Made by a program: the position numbers and the translations under genes | Shown here: piece by piece, positions 1-60,048 of the stretch | How positions within the stretch are numbered: position 1 is the stretch's first letter | How the letters are laid out: the number at the start of each line of letters is the position of its first letter | DNA from: Candidatus Latescibacterota bacterium | Lineage (GTDB): Bacteria; Latescibacterota; UBA2968 | DNA length: 64,000 nucleotides | Direction of reading: 5' to 3' | Assembly (NCBI GenBank): GCA_965198115.1 | Contig: OZ240241.1 | Location: 5,280,001-5,344,000, forward strand | Notes under the pieces: model-generated | Told to the model about the DNA's origin: nothing | What the model saw: the letters and a program-made list of their open reading frames with translations, nothing else | Databases searched by the model: none

Positions 1-3000
1 CTTCTCCTGACCACCCCCGCCGGGGCCTTGGACACCCTCGTCGTAACTACTCCCGACCCGCTGCTCGAAGACTGGCGCTGGACCGAGTTCGACCGCCGCA
101 GCGGTCTTGCCGGCAGCGTCCTGGACGTGTTCGAGGATCGCGACGGCAACATCTGGTTTGGCACGAATAAAGGCGCCCAGAAATACGACGGCCTGCGATG
201 GACGCCTTATGCGGCCGTGGATGATTTCCCGATCCACTGGGTCCGAAGGGTGTCGCAGGCCCGAGACGGTGCAATGTGGTTCCTGGGAGGAGCCCAGTCG
301 GCGGAAGGCCAGAGGATAGCTGTCGCCACCCGACTTGTTGAAGCCACGGCCACCACACGGCTCGAGATGACCACACACACGTTCGAGGGATGGGGTTCCA
401 TCAATGGTTTCCTCGAAGCTGCTGACGGATCGATCTGGGTGAACCTGGTTAGCAGTTCTCAAACCGATGTGAACGACCTGCGGCGATATGTCAATGGCAG
501 CTGGGAAACGGTGGGGCAACCGGCACGAACCGCGTGGAACATCGTACAGGATCGAAACGGAGCGATCTGGGTTGGAGGCCAATCAGGCATTCTTCGTTAT
601 GATGGCGTGCGTTGGAGGGTGTTCGGAGGGAAGACCCGGATCAATCGAGTGAGCGTGGATGCCCAAGGAATCTATGGGTGGTCCACGTAGGAACCGACAA
701 CGCCGGTGTCAGTCGATTCGTCGAAGGTGAATGGGAGTATCATCCTCTGACGAGTGCTCAAAGTGTCTGGCACTCGAGCAATGGTACCGTGTGGGTCGGG
801 GGCAACGGTGCTGTCTCACGGTATCGGCACGGTCACTGGCATGCCACGGTTCCGCCTCGCGTGGGAGCTCGTGTAAGGGGACTCCACGCGTCAGACGGTT
901 CGCTCTGGCTTTGGTCCCAGGCCGGTGGAAGGGTTTTCCGACTTGCGCTCGCCACTACTGCAACCGTCTACAATCACCCCGACTCCCTGCTCGTCGGCCC
1001 GGAGGGGCAAGACGGGTCGATGTGGTTCCGAACGCAGACATCCGCCGTGCGAATGCAAGACAATCGATGGCTATCGTATGGACTTGAGGACGGTTTCCTC
1101 AACGGCGGCGTACGGGCATTGGAGCGGACACCGGACGGAGAAATCTGGGCGATCGGGTTCCATCGAGGCGAGGGAGCCGCAGCGAGATTCAGGTCTGAGA
1201 AGTGGGACATCTTTACTGAAAGGGATGGCCTGATCGACACACCGATAGGGCTCCTGCCTACGAGAGATGGCGGTCTGTGGGTAACCGGTTTACACGAAAG
1301 TGAGTGCGCCGTCACTCGATTCGAGACGGGGTCCGGTTGGGAGCGTTTCACAACGGTGCTGAAGGGCCCCGAAGGCGTCGGACAGGCCTACGAAGCCTCT
1401 GACGGCACGGTCTGGTTCGGAGCTGAGATCGACCAGAACCAGGGCACCGGTCTCTACCGCTACGATCCCAACCACGCCGCGACTGGCAGCCCTCCCTGGA
1501 TACACTTCGACGAGACGGACGGACTCACGACTGCAATCCCTCGTTTCGCACCGCTCGACGGCAGTGCCAGGGGCTTTACGGAGTGGCCGACCGGGACGCT
1601 CTGGGTCGGAACGTCGCTGGGCATTTACCGCGTCGATCTTGCGAGTCTCCCACAGCACAGAACTTTCCAGCAGCTTCTCACGCGCGAAGACTTCGGGATC
1701 CGACTCCCTAAATTTCACAACCTGACGCCGGCGGACGACGCGCTCTGGTTCCATCCCTTCTATCCCCGTGGCGGGGGCGTCGTCCGACACGATGGCCAAG
1801 CGTGGAAAACTTTCAGGCGAAGGGATGGCAGCTTCTGGATTAACACGAACACGGGAGTCGCCCAGGTGCGTTACCGAGAAGTCGAGGCCCCAGAGACCTT
1901 CCTCGAACCAGCGACTGAATCCGTGGCATCTGATGGAACCATTCTGCTCCGCTTCTCCGGTCGGACACGCTGGGACGCCACGTCGCCGGAGGACCTGGCC
2001 TATGCCTGGCGTCTTAAGGGGAGCGAATGGACCGAAACCCGCAACGCTCTCGTTAGCCTGACGGCACTCGATCCTGGCCGATACACCTTCGAGGTCAAGG
2101 CCAGGGCACCCACGCTCCGCGTCGACCAGACGCCCGCTGTCCATACGTTTGTCGTCGCAGCCCCGTGGTGGCGCAATCCCGTCGTAGCCGGCCCTGGTAT
2201 CTTGCTCGTCATCGCTGTCATCTTCCAGTCCGCCCGGGTCGTACGCGGCAAACGCCAACTCCAACAATCCGTCGACGCCCTCTCCGCGGCCAACCACGAG
2301 CTTTTCGCCGTCAACAAGGCACTGCAGCGCGACCGCGCCGTCGAGCGTATCCGCAGCCAGGTCCAGTCGATGGATCGAGCGGAAGATTTCGAGAAAGTCC
2401 TCTCCGAACTGACCACCGATCTCAAAGAAGTCGGTCTCACATTCGACGCCTGCGAAATCGACGTCCTTGACGAGCCAGTCGACGCACCGTCCATCGCCTA
2501 CTTCGAAGAACGCGGCTTCCGCTACACGACCTACAGCCTCGACCCGGACGGCAACGTCGCCTACCAGTCCTACCACGTCCAGGCCCCGTTCCCGACCGTC
2601 AACCAGGAAACGATCGAACGTTTCGTCGCCGGCGAACCCTGGCAGGCCCTGATCGGCGGCAAGGACGCCATCGTCGAAGTGCCCGCGTCCAACTACGGCC
2701 GCCTCCGCCTCACCTCGTCACAGCGCACCGAATTCACCGACGACGAAACCGAGACCCTCAAGGAATTCGCCTCCGCCATCGCCCTCGGTTACGCCCGCTA
2801 CCTCGACATCCGCGAGATCCAGCTCCAGACCGAGCGCAAGTCAGCCTTCCTCGCCGCGATGTCCCACGAGCTGAGAACCCCGATGAACGCCATCAAGGGA
2901 TTCACCAACCTCGTCCTCCGCCGCGGTCGAGATGAGCTGTCCGAACGCAATCAAGAGAACCTCGAAAAGGTTTCGCAGTCGAGCGACCACCTCCTCGCGA

Positions 3001-3548
3001 TGATCAACGACCTCCTCGACCTCTCGAAAATCGAAGCCGGCAGGATAGACGTGAACGTCGAGACCTTCGACATCGCAGAGCTGATCCAGTCCTGCTGCGA
3101 TACTGTCAATCCTCTCGTAAAAGAGAGCGTCGAGCTACGCCACGAGGTCGCAGCCGAGATCGGGGTGGTCAATACGGATCGCTCACGGACACAACAGATG
3201 GTGATCAACCTCTTGTCCAACGCCATTAAGTTCACGGACCAAGGTGAAGTCCGTGTTGAAGCCAATCGCCGTAGCCGCGGGCTTCAGCCCGTGGACCAAC
3301 AGGACGATCTCGTCATCGCGGTCTCCGATACAGGCAAGGGCATCCCTGAGGACGAACTCCTTGCACTATTCGACGAGTATCGCCAGGTCGAGGGTCAATC
3401 TGACAGCGATGTCCAAAAAGGCACCGGGCTAGGTCTTTCCATCACAAAGAAATTCGCCGAACTGTTAGGTGGGTCCATCACCGTAGAAAGCGAGGTCGGT
3501 AAAGGCACGACGTTTACGATCACGATTCCATCAACCTATTCGGTTTGA
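1..3548 (+). CDS. Sensor histidine kinase (beta-propeller sensor repeats, Y_Y_Y-like domain, TM helix, GAF-like region, HisKA, HATPase_c); 5' partial; frameshift near 669
   Basis: Frame 1 is open from base 1 (LLLTTPAGALDT). ORFs 28..690 and 612..3548 join as ..DAQG/NLWVVHVG if one A is restored near 669. Contains DxxGxIW propeller repeats, SHELRTP H-box, NLLSNAIKFT, DTGKGI and GTGLGL boxes. Confidence 0.9.
3271..3294 (+). repeat. GTAG-type REP-like palindrome inside the kinase coding sequence
   Basis: gtag ccgcgggc ttca gcccgtgg: GTAG plus an 8-bp stem, 24 nt, read as SRGLQPV. Similar hairpins occur intergenically at 18195-18246. Confidence 0.7.
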
Positions 3549-3581
3549 TCGATCGATTTTCCTGTGCAGATCTGTGACCGT

Positions 3582-3714
3582 GTGGGACCAAGCTCCGCTT
3601 GGGGAGGGCTCCATAGGTTTACAGTTGCCCCCAAACCTGTCTGGGGTGCTGGCCCATTCTTCGGGCCTGATGGATGACACATAGGCCGGTTCCCAGGCCG
3701 GAGCCTGGTCCCAC
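3582..3714. repeat. 133-bp element bounded by inverted palindromic ends (REP doublet/MITE-like)
   Basis: gtgggaccaagctccgcttggg ... cccaggccggagcctggtcccac are near-perfect reverse complements. Confidence 0.7.
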
Positions 3715-3736
3715 CTCAATGGCCAGCGAAAGCCGA

Positions 3737-3773
3737 TTTCCTGATTCCCTATTTCCCTAATTCCCTAATTCCC
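3737..3773 (+). repeat. Octamer tandem array (TTCCCTAA-like, about 4.5 units); second copy at 8658-8673
   Basis: tttcctga ttccctat ttccctaa ttccctaa ttccc directly before ATG 3775. Confidence 0.8.
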
Positions 3774-3774
3774 A

Positions 3775-6700
3775 ATGCATCTCTCGATCCTCACATTTTT
3801 CATTCTTCATTTTTCCATGCGGCGCCAGCCGCCGAGCCCCCAGCCATCGGTCGTCTGCATTTCTGGATCCCCGCAGACTCCGCCGAAGTGTTCGACCGTC
3901 TCTATACCCAGCACGTCACCCCCTACCTCGACAGCCTCGGTTTCGTCGAATCGGATGAGCGTCCCCGAGAGACACCGCCCTACGCATATAACCGCCTTTA
4001 TGATTTCACCAGTTTCCAGGAAATCAATCGCCAGAACCGTAGACTGACCGTCGACCCACGATGGCGTGAGATTCGGAAGAAACTCGGCAGCGCTTTGCCA
4101 TCCGCCGCGAGTGAGGACGGTCTCCTCGAGACGAGCGACAGACGACCCCTTCGTCCCTATACAGTGACCGGAGCCCACGGCACGACCGTTCCGTTGGGAC
4201 CCGGCAAACAGAAGCGGGTCGGATCCTACCGGGGCAGCTGGCACCACTTCGACAAGACCAAGGGCCTTGACGCCTCCCTGTTAGCGTGCTTTTACGAGGA
4301 TGCCGAGGGAAGTCTGTGGCTTGGCACGCGAGACGGCGCGGTTCGCTATCGGAACGGCAGGTTCCAAACCTACAAGATCGAAGGCTCTCCCGATCGGCGC
4401 TACTTCTACGCATTTTACACGAATCCTGATGGCAAACTGTGGGCGGGAACGCGAGACGGCATTCTCGAGTTCAACGGATCCGGCTTCGATCAGATCGTCG
4501 GCCACGATGTGCTCCCTGGAGGGCACGCACACGAACTCGTCGAAGATGGGGCTGGGAACATTTGGACATCATCTGACCGCGGTGTCGCCCGATTCGACGG
4601 GGAATCCTGGACGACCTACGACGAGAAGGACGGGCTTCCGCGCGCCAACGTCAGAGGAATCGTCGCGGATCGCCAGGGCAGAGTCTGGTTTCTCGTTCGC
4701 TCGGGATTCGGGTTGTTGGACGGTGGGCTGGCAGTTTACGAGCACGGACGATTCACGAGCCTGCCCGGGAAAGATGCCCCCGAAGGCATTCGGATGTGGT
4801 CGGCCATCGTGGATACCAACGGGGATCTCTGGACCTCGGGGGTAGGCCTCATCACCCGATTCGACGGATCGGTCTGGCATCGCTTCACAGTCGACGACGG
4901 CCTACCGAACACCAGGGTGGGCGGTCTGGTCGAGGATAGTCGCGGAATCATCTGGTATTGGACGGACGAACGGGGTGTCGGTTTTATCGAGAACGGCCGC
5001 GTGACCACGTTTGCTCCACCCGATCGTCCTGCGCTTCACGTGATCAGCGGCGACCGCGTGGTCGAAGATGCGGATGGCACGATCTGGTTCGGAACCCAGG
5101 GTGGCGCGGTGCGCTACGACGGTCAGGACTGGCAGGTGTTCGGGACCGAAGAGGGGTTGTCGGAGGATGCTGCGTCCAGGATTTATGCGGACAGAGAGGG
5201 CAGAATCTGGCTGGCCGGCCAGGGTGGGACGCTGAGCCTCTATGATCCGAACACCTGGCACCACTTCACGACCGACGATGGTTTGCCGGCCAACAACATC
5301 ACAGCGAGTCTGATCGACAACACCGGCAACCTCTGGTTTGGTTCCCACGGAGGCGGGATAGGTCGGTTCAACGGCGAAACGTTCACGGTCTTCAGGACAG
5401 AGGACGGGATTCCCGAGAACCGGGTCCGTCGCCTCAGGAAAGATCGAAAAGGCGGCATCTGGCTCGCCACCCGTGGTGGGATGAGCTGCCTGGATTCCGA
5501 AACCGGGATGCTAACGAATTACACGGAGCGTGATGGCCTGATTCGCCATCGTATCAATGATATTGGCCAGGATGGCCGGGGCAGGATCTGGGCATCGCAG
5601 TGGCAGGCCGGCGTGGTTCGTCTGTCGGGAAATCGAATGGACTTCTTCGACTTGATCGACGATGTGCCCAGGCTTCTGTCGGAGGTTTTCGGGGACAGTC
5701 GGGGTAATGTGTGGTTCGGCCTGCACTGGGGGTCGGGAGAAGTTGTCCGCCGAGGGCCAAACGGGTTGCAGCGGTTTAATCGTGACGATGGGCTACCCGA
5801 TGCTTACGTCCGAGGCCTGCTGGAAGACAGCAAGGGGAACATCTGGATCGCCACATCCGGCGGCGGTGTCTGCCGTTACGACGGATCGAAGTTCGACGTG
5901 TTGACGACTACGGATGGACTGGCGAGCGACAACGTGAGTGCTGTCTTCGAAGATGAGGACGGTCACCTCTGGTTCGGCACGCGGAATGGCGCCAGCCGGT
6001 ACAATGGCAAGACCATCGCGTCGATCACCAAGGAGGACGGACTCTCCGGGAACTACGTTCGGTCGATCGTGCAGGACGACAGAGGAGATCTCTGGTTCAG
6101 CACGAACGAAGGCGTCACACGGTATCGCCAGCCGCCAGAGGATCCTCCTACCGTCGGCCTCTCGGCCATCGTCGCCGATCGCAGGATCGAGGATTTCACG
6201 GACCTGGCTTTCCCATCAACCATCGGACTCCTGAGCTTCGAATTCGACGGCACGAGCCACGCAACGCGGCCCGATAACATTCTCTTCAGATACCGTCTCG
6301 ACGGATTCGATGACGACTGGCAAGTCACCCGTTCCAGACGCGTCGAATACGCCGACCTACCGCGAGGCGACTACTCGCTTTCCCTTCAAGCCGTTGATCG
6401 TGACCTCGTCTATTCCGACGTCGTCTCCATCCCCTTCACCGTACACGCCCCCTATCGTCAGATCGCGCTCGTCACGGCCCTCGTCCTGGCCATCGGACTC
6501 GTCGCTCTTCAGGGCGTGCGGGTCGTGCGCCGGGACCGTCGTCTCCACGAATCCAACCAGGCCCTGTCCGACGCCAACAACCAGCTCTTCCAGGTCAATC
6601 GAGACCTCGAAACCGCCAACGTCGAGCTCCAGCGCGACCGCGCGCTGGAAAGAATCCGGGCCGAAGTCCAGTCGATGGATCGGGCCGAAGACTTTGAGAA

Positions 6701-7866
6701 GGTCCTGTCTCTCCTCACGGCCGACCTGAAATCAGGTTGGACTCCAATTCGCATCCTGCGAAATCGATGTGCTCGATGAACCGCTCGAGAACCCGTCTAT
6801 GTCCCGGTTCGAAGCAGGCGGCTTCCGCTACACGACCTACACGCTGGACCCTGATGGCCACGTCACCTCCGAAGCCTTCGCGGTCGCGGCGCCATTCCCC
6901 GCCGTAAACCGACAGACTATCGAACGCTTCATCGATGGCGAGCCCTGGCAGGCTATCATCGGCGGAACAGAATCGATTCTGGAAGTCCCCGCCGGCAGCT
7001 ACGGTCGCTTACGTCTCATCGCTACAGAACGCGATCAGTTTGCGGACGACGAAACCGCCACACTGAGGGAGTTCGCCGACGCCGTCGCGCTGGGCTACGC
7101 CCGCTATCTCGACATCCGCGAGATCCAGCTGCAAACCGAGCGTAAGTCCGCCTTCCTCGCCTCGATGTCCCACGAGCTCCGAACCCCGATGAACGCCATC
7201 AAAGGCTTCACGAATATGGTTCTTCGCCGGGCGGGCGACGTTCTCCCCGACCTGCAGAAGCAGAATCTTCAGAAGGTTGACCAAGCCAGCGATCACCTCC
7301 TCGCGATGATCAACGACCTCCTCGACCTCTCCAAAATCGAAGCCGGACGGATGGATGTGTCTCCCGAAGTCTTCGATGTGTCAGAACTCATCAGATCCTG
7401 CTGCGACACTGTCAGCCCGCTGGTCAAAGACGGCGTCGAACTACGTCACGAAATCGCGGAGAGCATCGGCGAAGCCCATACCGACCGCTCACGACTGCAA
7501 CAGATGGTCATCAATCTGCTTAGCAATGCAATCAAGTTCACGGATGAAGGAGCGGTGACGGTGTCCGCGGTTGTCCCCTCGACTCCGCTCGGGACAGGCT
7601 CTGGGCAGTCGGCGGAAGATGCGTCACTTGTCATCGCGGTGAGTGATACGGGCAAGGGAATCCCCGCAGAGGAACTCCCAACGCTCTTCGACGAGTATCG
7701 CCAGGTCGAAGGTCAATCCGATAACGATGTTCAAAAGGGCACCGGCCTCGGCCTATCCATCACAAAGAAATTCGCCGAGCTACTGAGTGGATCGATCGCT
7801 GTCGAAAGCGAAGTCGGCAAAGGCACAACATTTACCATCACCATTCCAGCAACCTATTCAGCGTAG
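3775..7866 (+). CDS. Sensor histidine kinase paralog (signal peptide, extra N-terminal domain, propeller repeats, Y_Y_Y, TM, GAF-like, HisKA, HATPase_c); frameshifts near 3815 and 6736
   Basis: ORFs 3888..6779 and 6769..7866 join as LKS/VGLQFASCEIDVLDE, matching paralog 1. The frame is open upstream of 3888 and a likely signal peptide starts at ATG 3775. H, N and G boxes are present. Confidence 0.88.
7576..7602 (-). repeat. 27-nt mini-element copy inside the kinase CDS
   Basis: 7575-7601 is the exact reverse complement of 58158-58184. It encodes PSTPLGTGS. Confidence 0.85.
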
Positions 7867-7943: not shown

Positions 7944-8575
7944 ATGACCTCCGGCAAAGCCGGAGGCTTGAAAACTTGTGAACCGCTCAAAGCGGTTGGA
8001 AACCAAGCGCCACCTAAAGGTGGCGATTACCTGAAAATGTTGAGCTGGTCGAGACGCCGGTCCTCCCGCTCCTGGTTCTGGATATACTCCCGAACCGTCT
8101 GTTCATCCTTGCCAACGGTGGAGACCCAGTAGCCTCTTGCCCAGAAATGCTGCCCGGTGAAGTTCGACCTGCGTCCCAGATAGTTCCGAGCAATGTGAAT
8201 CGCACTCTTTCCTTTGATGAACCCTACCGTCTGAGCTACTGAGTGCTTCGGCGGGATCGAAATCAACGTGTGCACATGGTCGGATCGCAGGTGACCCTCT
8301 TCCACACGGCATTCCTTCTGTGCGGCCAGATCCCGAATCACCTCGCCCAGATAGCGACGAATTTCACCATACAACACTTTTCTACGATACTTCCGAACCC
8401 AAACAACGTCATACTTGCACTCCCATACCGTGTGACGTAGACTCCTTACGTTGTTCATTAGAGAGCCTTCCTTCCGTGTGCTTTGAGCGGTCCACGGCAA
8501 GGGAGGCTCTTACATATTTCTGGAACTGTCAAACTCTGGGAGTCTCCCCGGCAGAGCCGGGGGCTTACCAAGGTT
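7944..8575 (-). mobile_element. IS200/IS605-family element, tnpA only (ends approximate)
   Basis: Subterminal hairpins cctccggc-aaa-gccggagg (7948-7966) and ccccggc-aga-gccgggg (8546-8562) flank a Y1 transposase. Confidence 0.85.
8027..8458 (-). CDS. tnpA: IS200/IS605 Y1 transposase TnpA
   Basis: CKYDVVWVRKYRRK, HUH motif DHVH, FWARGY, catalytic YIQNQ. ATG 8458 follows a GGAAGG RBS. Confidence 0.95.
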   Translation of the reverse strand: MNNVRSLRHTVWECKYDVVWVRKYRRKVLYGEIRRYLGEVIRDLAAQKECRVEEGHLRSDHVHTLISIPPKHSVAQTVGFIKGKSAIHIARNYLGRRSNFTGQHFWARGYWVSTVGKDEQTVREYIQNQEREDRRLDQLNIFR

Positions 8576-9325: not shown

Positions 9326-9551
9326 GCAGGCGTGGAGGGCAGGAGAGTAGGTGTTGGCACTGCTTTCCCGTCCGACGCAGCAACAAGCTTGTCGCATCCT
9401 CTCGCCGACGGTTTATTGGGTGCTCTACTCGTTTCGCCCTTTCCCAGGCAACGGTGAACGGCTCACGCTCCCCCCAGTTCGTGAGACGTCCGCCGAAGCA
9501 ATCGATCTCTTCAAAGTTTGCAAGAACACCATCATCCCGAACGAGGTCCCC

Positions 9552-10556
9552 ATGCCCCTTAATCCCCAATGGCTCTCCCAAATCACCGAAGAAATCATCG
9601 ACCCCGACCGCCCCATCGTCGACCCACACCACCACTTCTGGCACAATGGTCGACGGGGCTACCCCTATCTCCTCGAACAATTGTGGGAGGACACCAACTC
9701 GGGTCATCGGATCGAGCAGACTGTGTTCGTCGAGTGCGGCGCAGAGTACGGTCAGGATGGGCCCGAGGAGATGCGGCCGGTGGGCGAGACCCCGTTCGTC
9801 GCCGATCTCGCATCTCGATCGACTGAGGACGGCGGTGCGACCGTCGCAGGCATCGTCGGCCACGCTAACATCGCGCTCGGCGCCGATGTGAAACCCGTGC
9901 TCGAAGCCCATATCGAAGCCGGACGAGGCCTGTTCCGCGGGATTCGTCATCACGGCAGCTGGGACGCAAGTCCGGATGTCCCCAACTCCCGCATTGAGCC
10001 TCCTCCCCATCTCTTCCTTTCCTCCGATTTCCAGGCGGGGATCAGACAACTGGGTGCACTGGGACTCAGTTTCGACGCGTGGTGCTATCATCCCCAGATC
10101 CCCGAGGTTGCCGAACTCGCGAAGGCGTGTTCTGAGACGACGATCATCCTGAATCACCTCGGCGGCGTCATCGGCATCGGTCCCTACGCGAATCGTCGTG
10201 ACGAAGTCTTCGAGCAGTGGAAGCAGAGCTACGCTGGTCTCAGCGATTGCCCCAACGTCTATGGCAAGATCGGCGGCCTCGCGCAGGGTGTGAACGGACA
10301 GGGTTGGGAGAAACGCGATCTGCCTCCCACATCCGACGAAATCGCCGACGTCCAGCGTCCGTATTACCTCCACGCCATCGAATGTCTCGGCCCCGACCGC
10401 TGTATGTTCGAGAGCAATTTCCCCGTCGAAAAAGAATCCGTATCCTACCACGTCCTCTACAATGCGTTCAAGAAGATCGCGGCGGATTTCAGCGAGAATG
10501 AGAAAGATGATCTGTTTCGAGGGAGTGCGATTAGAGCGTATCGATTAAAGGCGTGA
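9552..10556 (+). CDS. Amidohydrolase_2 family protein (lactonase-like)
   Basis: DPHHH metal motif, FRGIRH, LNHLGG, FESNFP. GAGG RBS before ATG 9552. Confidence 0.9.
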   Translation: MPLNPQWLSQITEEIIDPDRPIVDPHHHFWHNGRRGYPYLLEQLWEDTNSGHRIEQTVFVECGAEYGQDGPEEMRPVGETPFVADLASRSTEDGGATVAGIVGHANIALGADVKPVLEAHIEAGRGLFRGIRHHGSWDASPDVPNSRIEPPPHLFLSSDFQAGIRQLGALGLSFDAWCYHPQIPEVAELAKACSETTIILNHLGGVIGIGPYANRRDEVFEQWKQSYAGLSDCPNVYGKIGGLAQGVNGQGWEKRDLPPTSDEIADVQRPYYLHAIECLGPDRCMFESNFPVEKESVSYHVLYNAFKKIAADFSENEKDDLFRGSAIRAYRLKA

Positions 10557-10577
10557 CGATTTGCCGTCGCGAAGCTG

Positions 10578-10607
10578 CACCCCGGTAGGCTTCTGAGCCG
10601 GGGCCCA
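10578..10607 (+). repeat. Half copy of the gtcaccccgg..ccggggccca palindrome family
   Basis: caccccggtaggcttctgagccggggccca matches 15283 and 25541. Confidence 0.65.
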
Positions 10608-10720
10608 CTTTTATCTTCGTGAAAAACGGCGAAGATGAATCACGGCTCAACTCACTGCCAGGAGACAGTATGGTCGCTCAACGCCGCGAATGAGGACGCC
10701 ATCCCTAATAGAGAATCCCA

Positions 10721-11708
10721 ATGCCCGTCAATCACGAGTGGCTCTCCAAGGTCACTGAAGAGATCGTCGATCCCGATCGACCCATTGTCGACCCCCACCA
10801 CCACTTCTGGAAGAGCGGACGCTGGGGCCGCTACTTGCTCGACGACCTGTGGACCGACACGAACAGCGGCCATCGCATCGAGCGGACCGTCTTTCTCGAG
10901 TGCCGAGCTGAGTACGACCAAACCGCGCCAGAGATCGAAGCGCCGCTCGGGGAGACCCGATTTGTTGCGGATCTGGCCGCTCGATCGGCAGAGGGCGAAG
11001 GTATGCGGCATCATCGGACACGTCAACTTTCGATTCGGGTCCGAGGTTGAAGCGGTTCTGAAAGCGCATATCGAAGCCGGAAACGGGCTGTTTCGCGGCA
11101 TCCGACAATCCTGCACCTGGGATGCGAGCGACCAGATCCCGAACGCAGGCAGCAATCCGATCCAGTATCTCTATCGTCAGGATGATTTCCGCAAGGGATT
11201 CGCACAGCTGGCTCCGCTGGCACTCAGCTTCGAATCCTGGCTTTACCACACGCAGCTGCCCGACCTGACAGAACTGGCGCGTGCGTTTCCCGACACCACC
11301 CTCGTCGTCAACCATCTCGGAGGCTCCCTCGGTATCGGGCCCTACGCGAATCGTCGAGAAGAAATCTTCTCCCAATGGGCAGAGAACTATGCGGCACTCA
11401 GTGAATGTCCGAACGTGTTCGCCAAGATTGGGGGCATTTCGATGACAGCGAACGGGTTCGGTTGGGACGAGCGGGACCTTCCGCCCACTTCGGACGAGCT
11501 GGCGGATGCCCAGCGGCCCTACTACCTTCACGCGATCGAATGCTTCGGCCCGAACCGGTGTATGTTCGAAAGCAACTTCCCGGTCGAGAAGCAGTCCGTC
11601 TCGTATCACGTCCTGTGGAATGCATTCAAGAAGGTTGCCGCCGACTTCAGCGAGGATGAGAAAGACGATCTGTTTCGAGGAACGGCGGAAAGGGTGTATC
11701 GGTTGTAG
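10721..11708 (+). CDS. Amidohydrolase_2 tandem paralog; frameshift near 10995
   Basis: ORF 10721..11050 gives the N-terminus and ORF 10635..11708 the C-terminus; both align with 9552..10556. Confidence 0.88.
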
Positions 11709-11744: not shown

Positions 11745-11839
11745 GTCAGACTGAGCGGGAGCCTGTCCTGAGCGGAGTCGAAGGGTCGAAGTCCCGGCCT
11801 AACGCGACTTGGCCGCCCTTCGACTCCGCTCAGGGTGAC
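11745..11839. repeat. REP doublet (ctgagcggagtcgaag family) with a nested 27-nt mini-element at 11758-11784
   Basis: gtcagactgagcg[ggagcctgtcctgagcggagtcgaagg]gtcgaagtc ... cccttcgactccgctcagggtgac. Confidence 0.8.
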
Positions 11840-18165: not shown

Positions 18166-18291
18166 CACTGAGGACACGGAGAATACGGAGGGTACAGCCC
18201 GCTTCAGCGGGCTTTGCTGCCTTAGCGTGGGGCTTTAGCCCCACGCACATTCGGTCCGGTTTTCTCCGTGTATCGGTGTGATCTGTGGTTT
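18166..18291. repeat. Inverted nonamer arrays enclosing two REP-like hairpins
   Basis: cactgagga cacggagaa tacggag ... gcccgcttcagcgggc, gcgtggggctttagccccacgc ... ctccgtgta tcggtgtga tctgtggtt. Confidence 0.7.
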
Positions 18292-56872: not shown

Positions 56873-56969
56873 TCCAGATCCTTTCGCCTGAGTACGATCT
56901 GTTACCCAATCCGGTGGATTTGCTGCAAATTGGGTGCTCCTGAACGACCACGATTCGACGAGGTTTCAG

Positions 56970-58055
56970 ATGAGCGACACCCAATCAGAGAAATCAGAGC
57001 GCCACGATGATAAGACGGGCGCCCGCGTCCTCCAACTGACCGACACACCGTGCGTGAACCATCCGCTTTACTATCTCGCCAACTCCTTCAGCCCCGACTC
57101 GGCCCGACTCGTCTTCGCCTCGAACCGAACCGGGTCCTACGCGCTCTACATCGTCGAGCTCGCCAGTGGCCAAATCGAACCCCTGTCGGATGTCGAAGGA
57201 ATTTACCCCTTCTCAGGCAACGTCATCGACAATCACGCCTACTATACGACCGCTCGAGGCAGCGTCTATCGGACCTCTCTAACGGATAGGTCTACCGACG
57301 AGCTTGCCTCGAAACCGAGCTGTGGCCTCGGCGAAGTCACCATCAACGCGACCGGCGATCTCGATTGTTGTCTCATCACGAACGACGGGAAAGCGAGCCT
57401 CCTCGTCTTTCGCACAGACGGCACGGAGACCTTCGTCGTCCTCGACGGCGCCCGTGCCCTCTATCATCCCCAATTCCATCCAACCGATCCCGAACTGCTG
57501 ATTTATTCCGCGGATCCGCCTGACCCGCGCCTGTGGAGCGTCCGCATCGACGGCTCCGAAGACCGGTGCTTCTACGCCGATCAGGGGGAAGAGTGGTTCG
57601 TCCACGAGACTTTCCTCGGACCGACGGATCGCGTTATCCTGTCGCACTGGCATCGTGGAATCATCGAGGTCGACCTCCGGACGGGCGCCCTCCGCACGAT
57701 CAGGGAGTTCAGTGCCTGGCACATCTCGTCGAATCCAGCCGGCGACCGCATTGTCTGCGACACGCATCTGCCCGATGTCGGCCTCTGCCTCGTCGATCCC
57801 GAAACCGGCGACTATGAATCCCTCTGCTATCCTGACGCCACGAACCAGGGTCATCAATGGTCCGAACCCACCCCCCTCGTCGCCGATGGCGAAGCCCCCG
57901 GCTGGGCCACGATGACCGAAGCCGTCTCCGCCGAAAGCGCCTACGGCCCCCAATGGAGCCACCCCCATCCCTCGTTCAGCCCGAATGGCAAATGGGTCTC
58001 CTTCACCTCCGACATCACAGGCCATCCTCAGGTCTATGTCGTCGAAGTGACGTGA
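56970..58055 (+). CDS. Oligogalacturonate lyase/TolB-like propeller protein
   Basis: QLTD..HPLYY, FASNRTG, HPQFHP, HETF, HPHPSFSP..FTSD. Confidence 0.8.
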   Translation: MSDTQSEKSERHDDKTGARVLQLTDTPCVNHPLYYLANSFSPDSARLVFASNRTGSYALYIVELASGQIEPLSDVEGIYPFSGNVIDNHAYYTTARGSVYRTSLTDRSTDELASKPSCGLGEVTINATGDLDCCLITNDGKASLLVFRTDGTETFVVLDGARALYHPQFHPTDPELLIYSADPPDPRLWSVRIDGSEDRCFYADQGEEWFVHETFLGPTDRVILSHWHRGIIEVDLRTGALRTIREFSAWHISSNPAGDRIVCDTHLPDVGLCLVDPETGDYESLCYPDATNQGHQWSEPTPLVADGEAPGWATMTEAVSAESAYGPQWSHPHPSFSPNGKWVSFTSDITGHPQVYVVEVT

Positions 58056-58082: not shown

Positions 58083-58196
58083 GTCATCCCGGTACGCCTC
58101 TTGGCCGGGATCCCCTTGGCGTCTGCAACGCAGTTCAATTTCACTCCCTTCGCGCCGGAGCCTGTCCCGAGCGGAGTCGAGGGGCGTCTTCGTGTT
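58083..58196 (+). repeat. Half palindrome (58083-58114) plus an octamer array with a nested mini-element (58157-58183)
   Basis: cttcgcgc c[ggagcctgtcccgagcggagtcgaggg]gcgt cttcgtgt. Confidence 0.8.
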
Positions 58197-58204
58197 GATT
58201 TCCT

Positions 58205-59916
58205 ATGTCTAATCGCGACCCCTATCACTTGATCTTCAACAACGACGGCGGAACGCTCTTTCGCCCCTTCGCACCGGCCGGCGAGGAGCCCTTTACGAAA
58301 AAAGGCTTCGTCGACCATACCCTCGGCTATCTCGAGAACACGCAGGTCGACGCCTTCTCCTGGACCCTCGGGACGGATATCTGGCGCACGCCAGACATTC
58401 AGGGAGCCGGTCGAGCGACCAATTTTTACAGCCACAGGACCGAGGTCGGCGAGCGGTTCTACGACCTCGAGCCGCCCTTCCATGCGCGAAGCTGGCAGGT
58501 CATCGCCGACCGGGTCAAGCATATGATCGCCGAGGGCGACGATCCGCCGCTAGTGCTTGCTGACGCCGCACACCAGCGCGGGCTCGACTTCTTCCTTTCG
58601 GTCCGCATGAACGACGCCCACGACGGCCGCATCGTCGAACGCAACAGCAGGCCGCTCTATGGCTCAAAGCTCGCACTGAACTATCCCGTCTTCGAAAACG
58701 GCCGGTTCATCGAGGAGAACATCCGAGGCCACATCTGCCGGATGAAGCTGGAGCATCCGGAATGGCTGATCGGAGAGCAGAATTCACTCACACGCGTCTG
58801 CGCGATCGCGTTTGACTACGCCCACCAGCCAGTCCGCGACTTTCGTCTTGCCCTGATCGATGAAGGCGATCGGACAGTACGACATCGACGGAATCGAGCT
58901 CGACTTCCTACGACACCCTCTCGTCTTCAAGCCTGGAGAAGAGCGTAAGCACGCCCACCTGATGACGGCCTTCATCGGACGTGTAAGAGAAGCCCTCGAT
59001 CGGGCGGGCTCGGAGCGTGGTAAGCACCTGCGTCTTTCGGTACGTACGCTGGTTCCACTCGAGGCATCCCGCCGAATTGGGCTCGACGTCGACGAATGGC
59101 TACGCGAAGGCTTCATCGATATCTGGATAGGCGGCATCGTTGACCGTACGCGCCTCGATCTGCGTGAAGTCGTCAAGCTGGCTGCGAAATACGAGCGGCC
59201 CCGTCTATGCCTCGTTCAAGACAGATGCCATCCTCGGCCGTGGCCACCATAAGCCAGAAGCCTTCCGAGCCGTCGCGGCAAACCACTATCGCGCTGGTGT
59301 GCAGGGCATCTACCTGTTCAACATGACAGCTTATCGATACCGCTGGCTGGCAGGCCGGACACCCCCCGAGGGTCTGGGCTTGGACTACGATTACCGACCC
59401 TTGTGCGAGATCGGTTCGTTCGAAGACATTCGACACGAAGACAAACACTACATCTTCGACAACAAAGGATCGGGTCACCTGACGGACCTCCTCACCTTCT
59501 CGGAGTTGGCACCCGAACTGCAGGACCGACTGTTGACTTCCGAGTGGGGCACAGCTTTCGACAAGCCCGTCTTGCCAGCCCTCTTGCAACAGGGCCAGTC
59601 GGTCGAAACCGTCCTCCGGATCGCCGATGATCCCACCGATGCGGAGGAAGCTGGCCAGCGATTGACCGCGACCCTCCGTCTGATCCTCACCGATATGACA
59701 GGCGGCTCCCACGTCCTGACCCTCGTGTGGAACGGCAGCGCGCTTCCAGCGCAGACGTTGATCGAAGACATAACCTATCAGCTCGACCTCGATCTTTCAC
59801 CAGATCACATCATCTGCGGCGACAACGTGCTTGAGCTCTCGCTCGATTCTGGGGATCCCGAGGTCTTATCCGAAATCCGCATCGACGACGCACAAGTGAT
59901 CGTCAGCTACAAATGA
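58205..59916 (+). CDS. GHL10/DUF187-like protein; frameshifts near 58866 and 59200
   Basis: IFNNDG, SVRMNDAH, HPEW, DYA..VR, YDIDGIELDFLR, GIYLFN across three ORFs. Confidence 0.7.
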
Positions 59917-59993: not shown

Positions 59994-60048
59994 CACTGTG
60001 TCCATCTGTGTGCAGGCGCCTGCCCCGAGCGGAGTCGAGGGGTGGTTC
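59994..60048 (+). repeat. Decamer array with a nested mini-element (60015-60041)
   Basis: cactgtgtcc atctgtgtgc a[ggcgcctgccccgagcggagtcgaggg]gtggttc. Confidence 0.8.

Follow-up and report, generated by a model that had tools for sequence, protein, structure and literature searches.

Why should two neighbouring, paralogous sensor kinases each carry a different short repeat, read in frame, at the same point of the same domain? The question is raised by the window analysed here, a stretch of 64,000 nucleotides (G000:C1:5280001-5344000; contig OZ240241.1) from the 8.43 Mb single-contig genome (G000) of a Candidatus Latescibacterota bacterium. An earlier note on this DNA had reported two different palindromic elements between the N-box and the G1 box of two histidine kinases, and had proposed that this variable surface loop is a permissive landing site at which unrelated repeats independently create new peptide. 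We suggest, with a probability of about 0.75, that the N-box/G1 loop holds unrelated dispersed repeats in frame, which probably arrived as selfish DNA in a turn predicted to be disordered and were likely kept because they are harmless. The original inference is supported by our results and is widened from two insertions to many; neither of the two outcomes that the note named as refuting it was found.

Both genes encode propeller-sensor histidine kinases (HisKA and HATPase_c) with the features of class I histidine kinases (H, N, G1 and G2 boxes, GHKL fold). Their family has about 20 members in the genome, counting whole and partial copies, and the nearest named relatives are from Candidatus Latescibacterota among the matches listed. 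Kinase 1 consists of a 5' fragment with beta-propeller sensor repeats (1..690, plus strand; open at the left edge of the window, ending in a stop, with a blastx frame change against homolog P0018) and a main open reading frame (ORF) with propeller, Y_Y_Y, HisKA and HATPase_c (678..3548, plus strand). Kinase 2 has a 5' ORF with propeller sensor and membrane segment (3888..6779, plus strand) and a 3' ORF with HisKA and HATPase_c (6769..7866, plus strand), in which the H, N, G1 and G2 boxes are intact. The segment from the N-box to the G1 box has 28 residues in kinase 1 (3237..3320, plus strand), compared with a family baseline of 19, and 32 residues in kinase 2 (7543..7638, plus strand), made up of a 24-residue loop and 8 more. 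Both loop peptides were found in the sequence as quoted earlier; the flanking protein, described as nearly identical, is less alike than that: the 80 residues preceding the loop are 79% identical, the 70 that follow it 90% and the kinase core 77%.

The kinase 2 insert is a 27-base dispersed mini-repeat (7575..7601, plus strand; 24-base core 7576-7599), hereafter element A. It is the exact reverse complement of 58158..58184 (the copy there is on the minus strand), the identity ending at both borders, and this second copy is intergenic, as had been stated, located between the called genes 56934-58055 and 58205-58948 and flanked by a further short repeat. It is just one of five exact copies in the genome, so the donor of the kinase 2 copy is not singled out. 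Two more copies in the window have two mismatches each, at 11759..11785 (minus strand, nested in a related hairpin repeat) and 60016..60042 (minus strand). At up to five mismatches the genome holds 131 copies; six shuffles, with four mismatches allowed, gave 0 matches each. Gene calling by a hexamer model (6199 genes of at least 120 residues) covers 77% of the genome, yet 120 of the 131 copies are intergenic and 11 are in called genes. The conserved span is 27-28 bases and the flanks beyond it are not conserved.

Empty-site relatives, with the same flanks elsewhere and 24 fewer bases, were detected for 63 of the 131 copies, compared with about 3.6 for random positions, and the second-largest class has 28 copies at 25 bases. 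A net gain of 24 bases preserves any reading frame, and genes for a P-type ATPase, a gingipain-like peptidase and a glycosyltransferase, among others, also have element A in frame. In kinase 2 its host is an eroded 7-base repeat (7564..7615, plus strand), whose paralog array at G000:2631167-2631195 has 4.1 units without element A; once the 24-base core is taken away, the remaining 24-residue loop agrees with the paralog at G000:2631245 at 51 of 72 bases. The kinase 2 insert is thus in frame in the loop, as claimed, but as a nested 24-base insertion in an older 7-base-repeat loop and not as a palindrome.

Folding led us to reject the palindrome reading of element A, for which the word is too strong, since the element folds no better than shuffles (z +1.0 and +1.3 for the two strands), and neither the stable stem-loop nor the terminal GTAG or CGTC tag of GTAG/CGTC repetitive extragenic palindromic (REP) sequences was found in it. 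Covariation among 94 distinct copies, with positions 4/17 being C-G in 48 and T-A in 39 and the pair 1/20 holding in 91 of 94 copies on the reverse strand versus 42 of 94 on the given strand, points to a probable short bulged single-stranded hairpin with an internal GA/GA loop, pairing best on the minus strand of the window; these counts include related copies, uncorrected.

Near-identical copies of element A were detected in plasmids of Sphingomonas, Methylomonas and Planktothrix and in nine viral contigs. In the Sphingomonas (traD) and Methylomonas plasmids it is located within annotated genes on the antisense strand with the frame unbroken (L165, L167). For the core in genes, 9 of 10 copies are on the mRNA strand, opposite to the better-pairing hairpin strand, although the numbers are small. 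In 10 of 58 metagenome loci (L187, L192, L203, L205, L213, L220, L221, L229, L231 and L232) element A adds eight residues in frame at one C-terminal motif of another protein family, which we take to be restriction-modification methylase-like; the copy in L232 is placed a few residues beyond the position of the other nine. The motif is a second hot spot for element A. The same scan, made with a narrow search pattern, found no kinase with element A right after an N-box-like motif in the 58 loci. Genes of two kinds were tried as the source of the repeats and rejected. Four-helix-bundle genes gave 2 matches and GIY-YIG genes 4, of which 3 were checked; none had a 7-base array, a kinase 1 hairpin or a copy of element A at a distance of up to 500 bases. 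A small GIY-YIG nuclease gene cut by an insertion sequence (IS) (L005; G000:C1:510446-510649, minus strand) has a hairpin repeat of the element A host type 23 bases upstream, and is a possible mover of that hairpin repeat.

The kinase 1 insert is of another kind. A GTAG-tagged REP-type hairpin is read in frame at 3271..3294 (plus strand), about 27 bases over the baseline with the ends inferred, and its predicted RNA fold (-16.3 kcal/mol, z -4.2) was not equalled by any of 200 shuffles. The GTAG is followed by a stem of 8-9 base pairs, in agreement with the REP definition of a tag at the foot of a 5-13 base-pair stem with a short loop. Of the two elements described as palindromic, this one is a true hairpin, and element A does not fold as a palindrome. 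Its 24-mer is unique in the genome at up to two mismatches; hairpins with an NTAG tag and the core and loop in common number 19, of which 17 are intergenic, one is at a gene edge and the kinase 1 copy is the only one within a gene. The same search gave 0 hits in the reversed genome and 1 in the complemented genome. The hairpin therefore has intergenic relatives genome-wide and is multi-copy and mostly extragenic, as REPs are, and the NTAG of the other copies indicates that the tag is degenerate. One relative in the window is the second hairpin of an intergenic two-hairpin repeat (18191..18245, plus strand).

A single-copy Y1 transposase gene on the minus strand (G000:C1:1604877-1605368; L001:378-869) has inverted two-hairpin repeats of the kinase 1 type, one on each side, and of 19 Y1 loci checked it alone has a kinase 1 hairpin within 500 bases. 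The layout is REPtron-like, possibly that of a class 3 TnpA-Y1 REPtron, and the putative link to the kinase 1 hairpin is a lead. The IS200/IS605-family transposase gene next to the kinases (8027..8500, minus strand) is a neighbour only and was ruled out as the mobiliser, being multi-copy and having neither hairpin type at its ends.

The same loop is expanded in other members of the family. Of 20 readable loops in the genome, 9 have the baseline length of 19 residues and 11 exceed it, 10 of these in frame; the exception is an IS-interrupted fragment. The expanded loops hold the kinase 1 hairpin, element A, a nested composite of element A (fragment at 4465240), 7-base arrays (five genes), one unique hairpin-like insert and, in one case, 24 residues without a detected repeat. 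Internal 7-base arrays of at least 3.5 units occur 10 times in the 6199 called genes, and 8 of these are in the N-box/G1 loop, in five genes and with about three origins. Among 120 database homologs, 7 of them from this genome, 121 loops could be read, of which 56 have 19 residues and 65 have 23-65; the loop peptides of kinases 1 and 2 were in none of the other homolog loops. In a 228-column core alignment of 105 members with the loop left out, insertions elsewhere are small and mostly of single residues, apart from one small second site. The loop is thus the sole site of the core at which insertions are common to more than a few rows, single residues and that second site set aside, and the description of a permissive landing site holds. 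In 93 loops of distant kinases, used as a control only, 83 have 17-26 residues and 10 are longer (range 17-39, with one of 78) among the matches listed, and this variation suggests that the site is generally permissive.

The second site is located before the N-box, where a 23-base sister of element A is in frame in two kinase paralogs (G000:C1:393376 and 4795581). This sister repeat has 28 copies, 26 of them intergenic, and the two kinase copies are its only ones in genes.

Long and short loops are interleaved in a quick tree built without the loop; 20 homologs that the H-box pattern had missed, 7 duplicates from the genome itself and 3 further sequences were left out of it. Among 338 close pairs, in which the flanks agree at 88% or more and one or both loops are long, just 9 have similar loops, and identical long loops were found on flanks just 69-77% identical. 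Together, the scarcity of shared loops in close pairs and the recurrence of the same long loop on diverged flanks suggest that loops turn over quickly and also pass from one paralog to another. The claim that unrelated repeats independently make new peptide is therefore upheld as to several unrelated elements, but recombination is suggested as well, and the new peptide holds for the reading frame only, both window genes being frameshifted.

The related genomes provide empty and filled counterparts, although the cross-genome cases are few and the genomes are kin and not independent samples. The strict element A pattern was detected in 3 of 31 related genomes. G031 (96% complete) has no element A match, and its 18 paralogs have loops of 19 (13), 22 (1) and 24 (4) residues without the kinase peptides, so a genome lacking the repeat has short loops. 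A different 33-base palindrome has 108 copies in G023, including one in the N-box/G1 loop that is identical to other copies there and whose carrier is in an open frame of 1100 residues; the sister genome G040 has six copies and its kinase counterpart has an empty loop. A repeat-filled loop in a G001 copy is out of frame.

An AlphaFold2 model of the kinase core, made on a 26-row alignment (mean predicted local distance difference test, pLDDT, 78; predicted template modelling score 0.71), matches the fold of GacS, RetS and HK853. The insert is placed between strands 143-150 and 168-175, where the beta-hairpin preceding the G1 box turns, with pLDDT below 50 at 154-163, and is predicted to be disordered. 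The second strand has the G1 aspartate (residue 175) at its far end, and from this topology the insert probably lies away from the nucleotide. The alignment to the solved kinase 7z8n has an 8-residue gap at the insert.

The earlier note did not mention that both genes have frame breaks upstream of the kinase core, near 667-690 in kinase 1 and near 6733-6740 in kinase 2; a continuous sensor-to-kinase reading frame was found in neither. Contigs of runs X1 and X2 match 75-2816 and 2996-7323 with 0 differences, and we rejected assembly error as the cause of the two frameshifts, although the agreement comes from a single sample, possibly the source of the assembly, and is not independent. Frame changes upstream of the core were found in 9 of 15 paralogs; indels in 17 of 133 copies of one IS indicate that some breaks in the other paralogs could be errors. 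Both window kinases are likely decaying, to judge from the reading frames. The catalytic boxes of the kinases are intact, and the 3' ORF of kinase 2 overlaps the upstream stop, so that a free kinase fragment is possible.

These data can be arranged as a sequence of events. The inserts come from mostly intergenic repeat families of their own genomes, and element A adds a net 24 bases, which keeps any frame. The 7-base arrays probably came first and would then have served as landing pads for the 24-33-base elements, giving nested loops. An HUH (Y1) transposase may have spread the kinase 1 hairpin, as suggested by the single-copy gene flanked by inverted copies; no enzyme was identified for element A. 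Frame-breaking insertions would have been purged while the genes still worked, and recombination between paralogs, with the conserved boxes serving as homology, may have moved loops from copy to copy. Most copies in this genome, including both window kinases, would have decayed since.

An alternative is that the loop is a favoured and selected diversity cassette, in which repeat-derived, paralog-shuffled loops tune or insulate similar kinases through partner binding, dimer choice or mRNA structure. The strong concentration of in-gene 7-base arrays in the loop, the expansion of over half of the family loops, the recurrence of loop types on differing flanks and the frame kept by nearly every loop are all in line with such selection. 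Nevertheless, we consider it unlikely, because no motif is common to the peptides, which change more quickly than the core does, the insert is predicted to be disordered, G031 retains 18 short-loop paralogs and the carriers in the window's genome are largely broken. These broken genes allow another explanation, that the inserts arrived after gene death as pseudogene debris and were never protein: frameshifts were found in both window kinases and in 9 of 15 paralogs, and the IS-interrupted fragment and the G001 copy have loops out of frame. It is nonetheless quite improbable as a general account, since 10 of 11 expanded loops of many different lengths are in frame, uninterrupted homologs of 1000-1700 residues have repeat-like loops and the G023 carrier is in its long open frame. 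Element A keeps the frame by its own size, so that kinase 2, taken alone, may have received it as a dead gene. Local slippage or template switching, with the likeness to intergenic repeats being convergence, could have made the 7-base arrays grow and would agree with a kinase 1 hairpin that has no exact sibling, but it is very improbable as the main origin of the loops. It is already refuted for element A, a non-periodic 27-base string with exact copies elsewhere and near-identical ones in the Sphingomonas, Methylomonas and Planktothrix plasmids and the nine viral contigs, and for the G023 insert, identical to its other copies.

Several observations weigh against the reading of harmless selfish repeats in a disordered turn. 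The array concentration in the loop exceeds what plain tolerance predicts. We found no empty allele close to kinase 1 (best loop identity 0.29), which makes the ends and the age of its insert uncertain, and the outer stem of its hairpin is unlike that of today's intergenic copies. The protein of the hairpin-flanked Y1 gene matches NF033573 IS200 and not NF047646 RAYT, and its four relatives in three other genomes have no kinase 1 hairpin core nearby. At the junctions of element A, 2-3 bases are replaced in 57 of the 63 empty/filled pairs, clean insertion not being the rule, and we know of no mechanism that explains this replacement. G031 has four kinase 1-type hairpins and no loop insert, which fits rarity and adds no support, and the many open forks of the quick tree leave recombination without formal proof. 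With these points taken into account, it is most likely that the repeats filling the loop are neutral selfish DNA that the kinases tolerate, and not a new function. A bolder proposal takes element A as a cross-phylum, 24-base, frame-preserving mobile element that moves as a single-stranded hairpin by a replacement reaction known from no enzyme, with the loop arrays as its landing pads and paralog recombination producing a cassette that renews itself and diversifies an entire signalling family; we regard it as tentative, with the odds clearly against it.

An IS with a 398-residue transposase, presumably IS256-like (for instance, G000:C1:61323-62519), has 133 near full-length copies, which, alongside the many split genes and the dozens of copies of IS200, suggests a genome in IS expansion. 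At 9420-11708 the window has two tandem paralogs, which we assume to be amidohydrolase-like, the second seemingly split by a frameshift near 10950-11050.

The loop offers a case in which peptides made de novo by selfish DNA can be counted, with one loop and many unrelated donors, and empty/filled pairs are at hand (kinase 2 and its paralog, G023 and G040). The fixed gain of 24 bases and the odd replacement junction of element A are handles on how elements of less than 30 bases move. For kinase biology the lesson is likely modest: the turn before the G1 box accepts up to about 45 extra residues and is a possible tag site. If the bolder proposal were true, the kinase loop would be a self-renewing cassette diversifying a signalling family.

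Small dispersed repeats (SDR) of Nostocaceae, reportedly described by Elhai et al. in 2008 (Genome Res 18:1484), are said to have 21-27 bases and conserved bulged stems and to be nested within 7-base arrays and within copies of their own kind. Element A fits these features in size (27-base span, net +24, 131 copies), covariation and nesting (in heptamer arrays, other repeats and itself), and we liken the two by description and not by sequence. In contrast, MITEs (transposable elements of the miniature inverted-repeat type) and Rickettsia palindromic elements (RPEs), which have terminal inverted repeats, duplicate their target site and are about 100-200 bases long, do not match: the elements here have 24-33 bases and element A replaces bases without duplication in those 57 of 63 pairs. 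As far as the available part of the source tells (PMC10969869), RPEs are alike in being dispersed repeats in frame in protein genes and unlike in having about 150 bases, a conserved peptide and unrelated host genes, whereas here 24-33 bases or 7-base arrays are stacked in one loop. A mainly open-access literature search, with the Geobacter supplements and the figures of the REP paper outside it, detected nothing on repeats in the N-box/G1 loop of kinases.

REPs in frame in genes are already published. GTAG/CGTC REPs are hairpins of 20-40 bases, mostly intergenic, according to the accessible portion of Di Nocera et al. 2013 (PMC3733652), whose authors suggest flexible loops as the home of intragenic REPs and whose supplement 3 gives a REP dimer at residues 589-612 of a sensor histidine kinase of S. 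maltophilia. The kinase 1 element fits this GTAG-REP class. In what is available of that report, genes of one category are mostly hit at differing sites, recB excepted, whereas in our case one loop of one family has taken up unrelated repeats. In REPtrons, as described in the part of Quentin et al. 2018 seen (PMC6006769), a single-copy Y1 gene is flanked by REPs, class 3 proteins are IS200-like yet REP-flanked, and the tnpA genes of subclass 2.4 have REPs inserted in frame in a region that is variable and peripheral; the Y1 gene of the window's genome resembles these REPtrons in layout, and its action on the kinase 1 hairpin is putative. Geobacter metallireducens and G. bemidjiensis have four-unit heptanucleotide elements in and between genes, and one Geobacter family is inserted in genes in all frames without frameshift (PMC2700814, PMC2996986); unlike for the kinase loop, the accessible portions of these two papers describe no single hot-spot loop for the multicopy sequences. 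To these known systems the present analysis adds a well-controlled hot spot in a single loop and the +24 replacement rule of element A.

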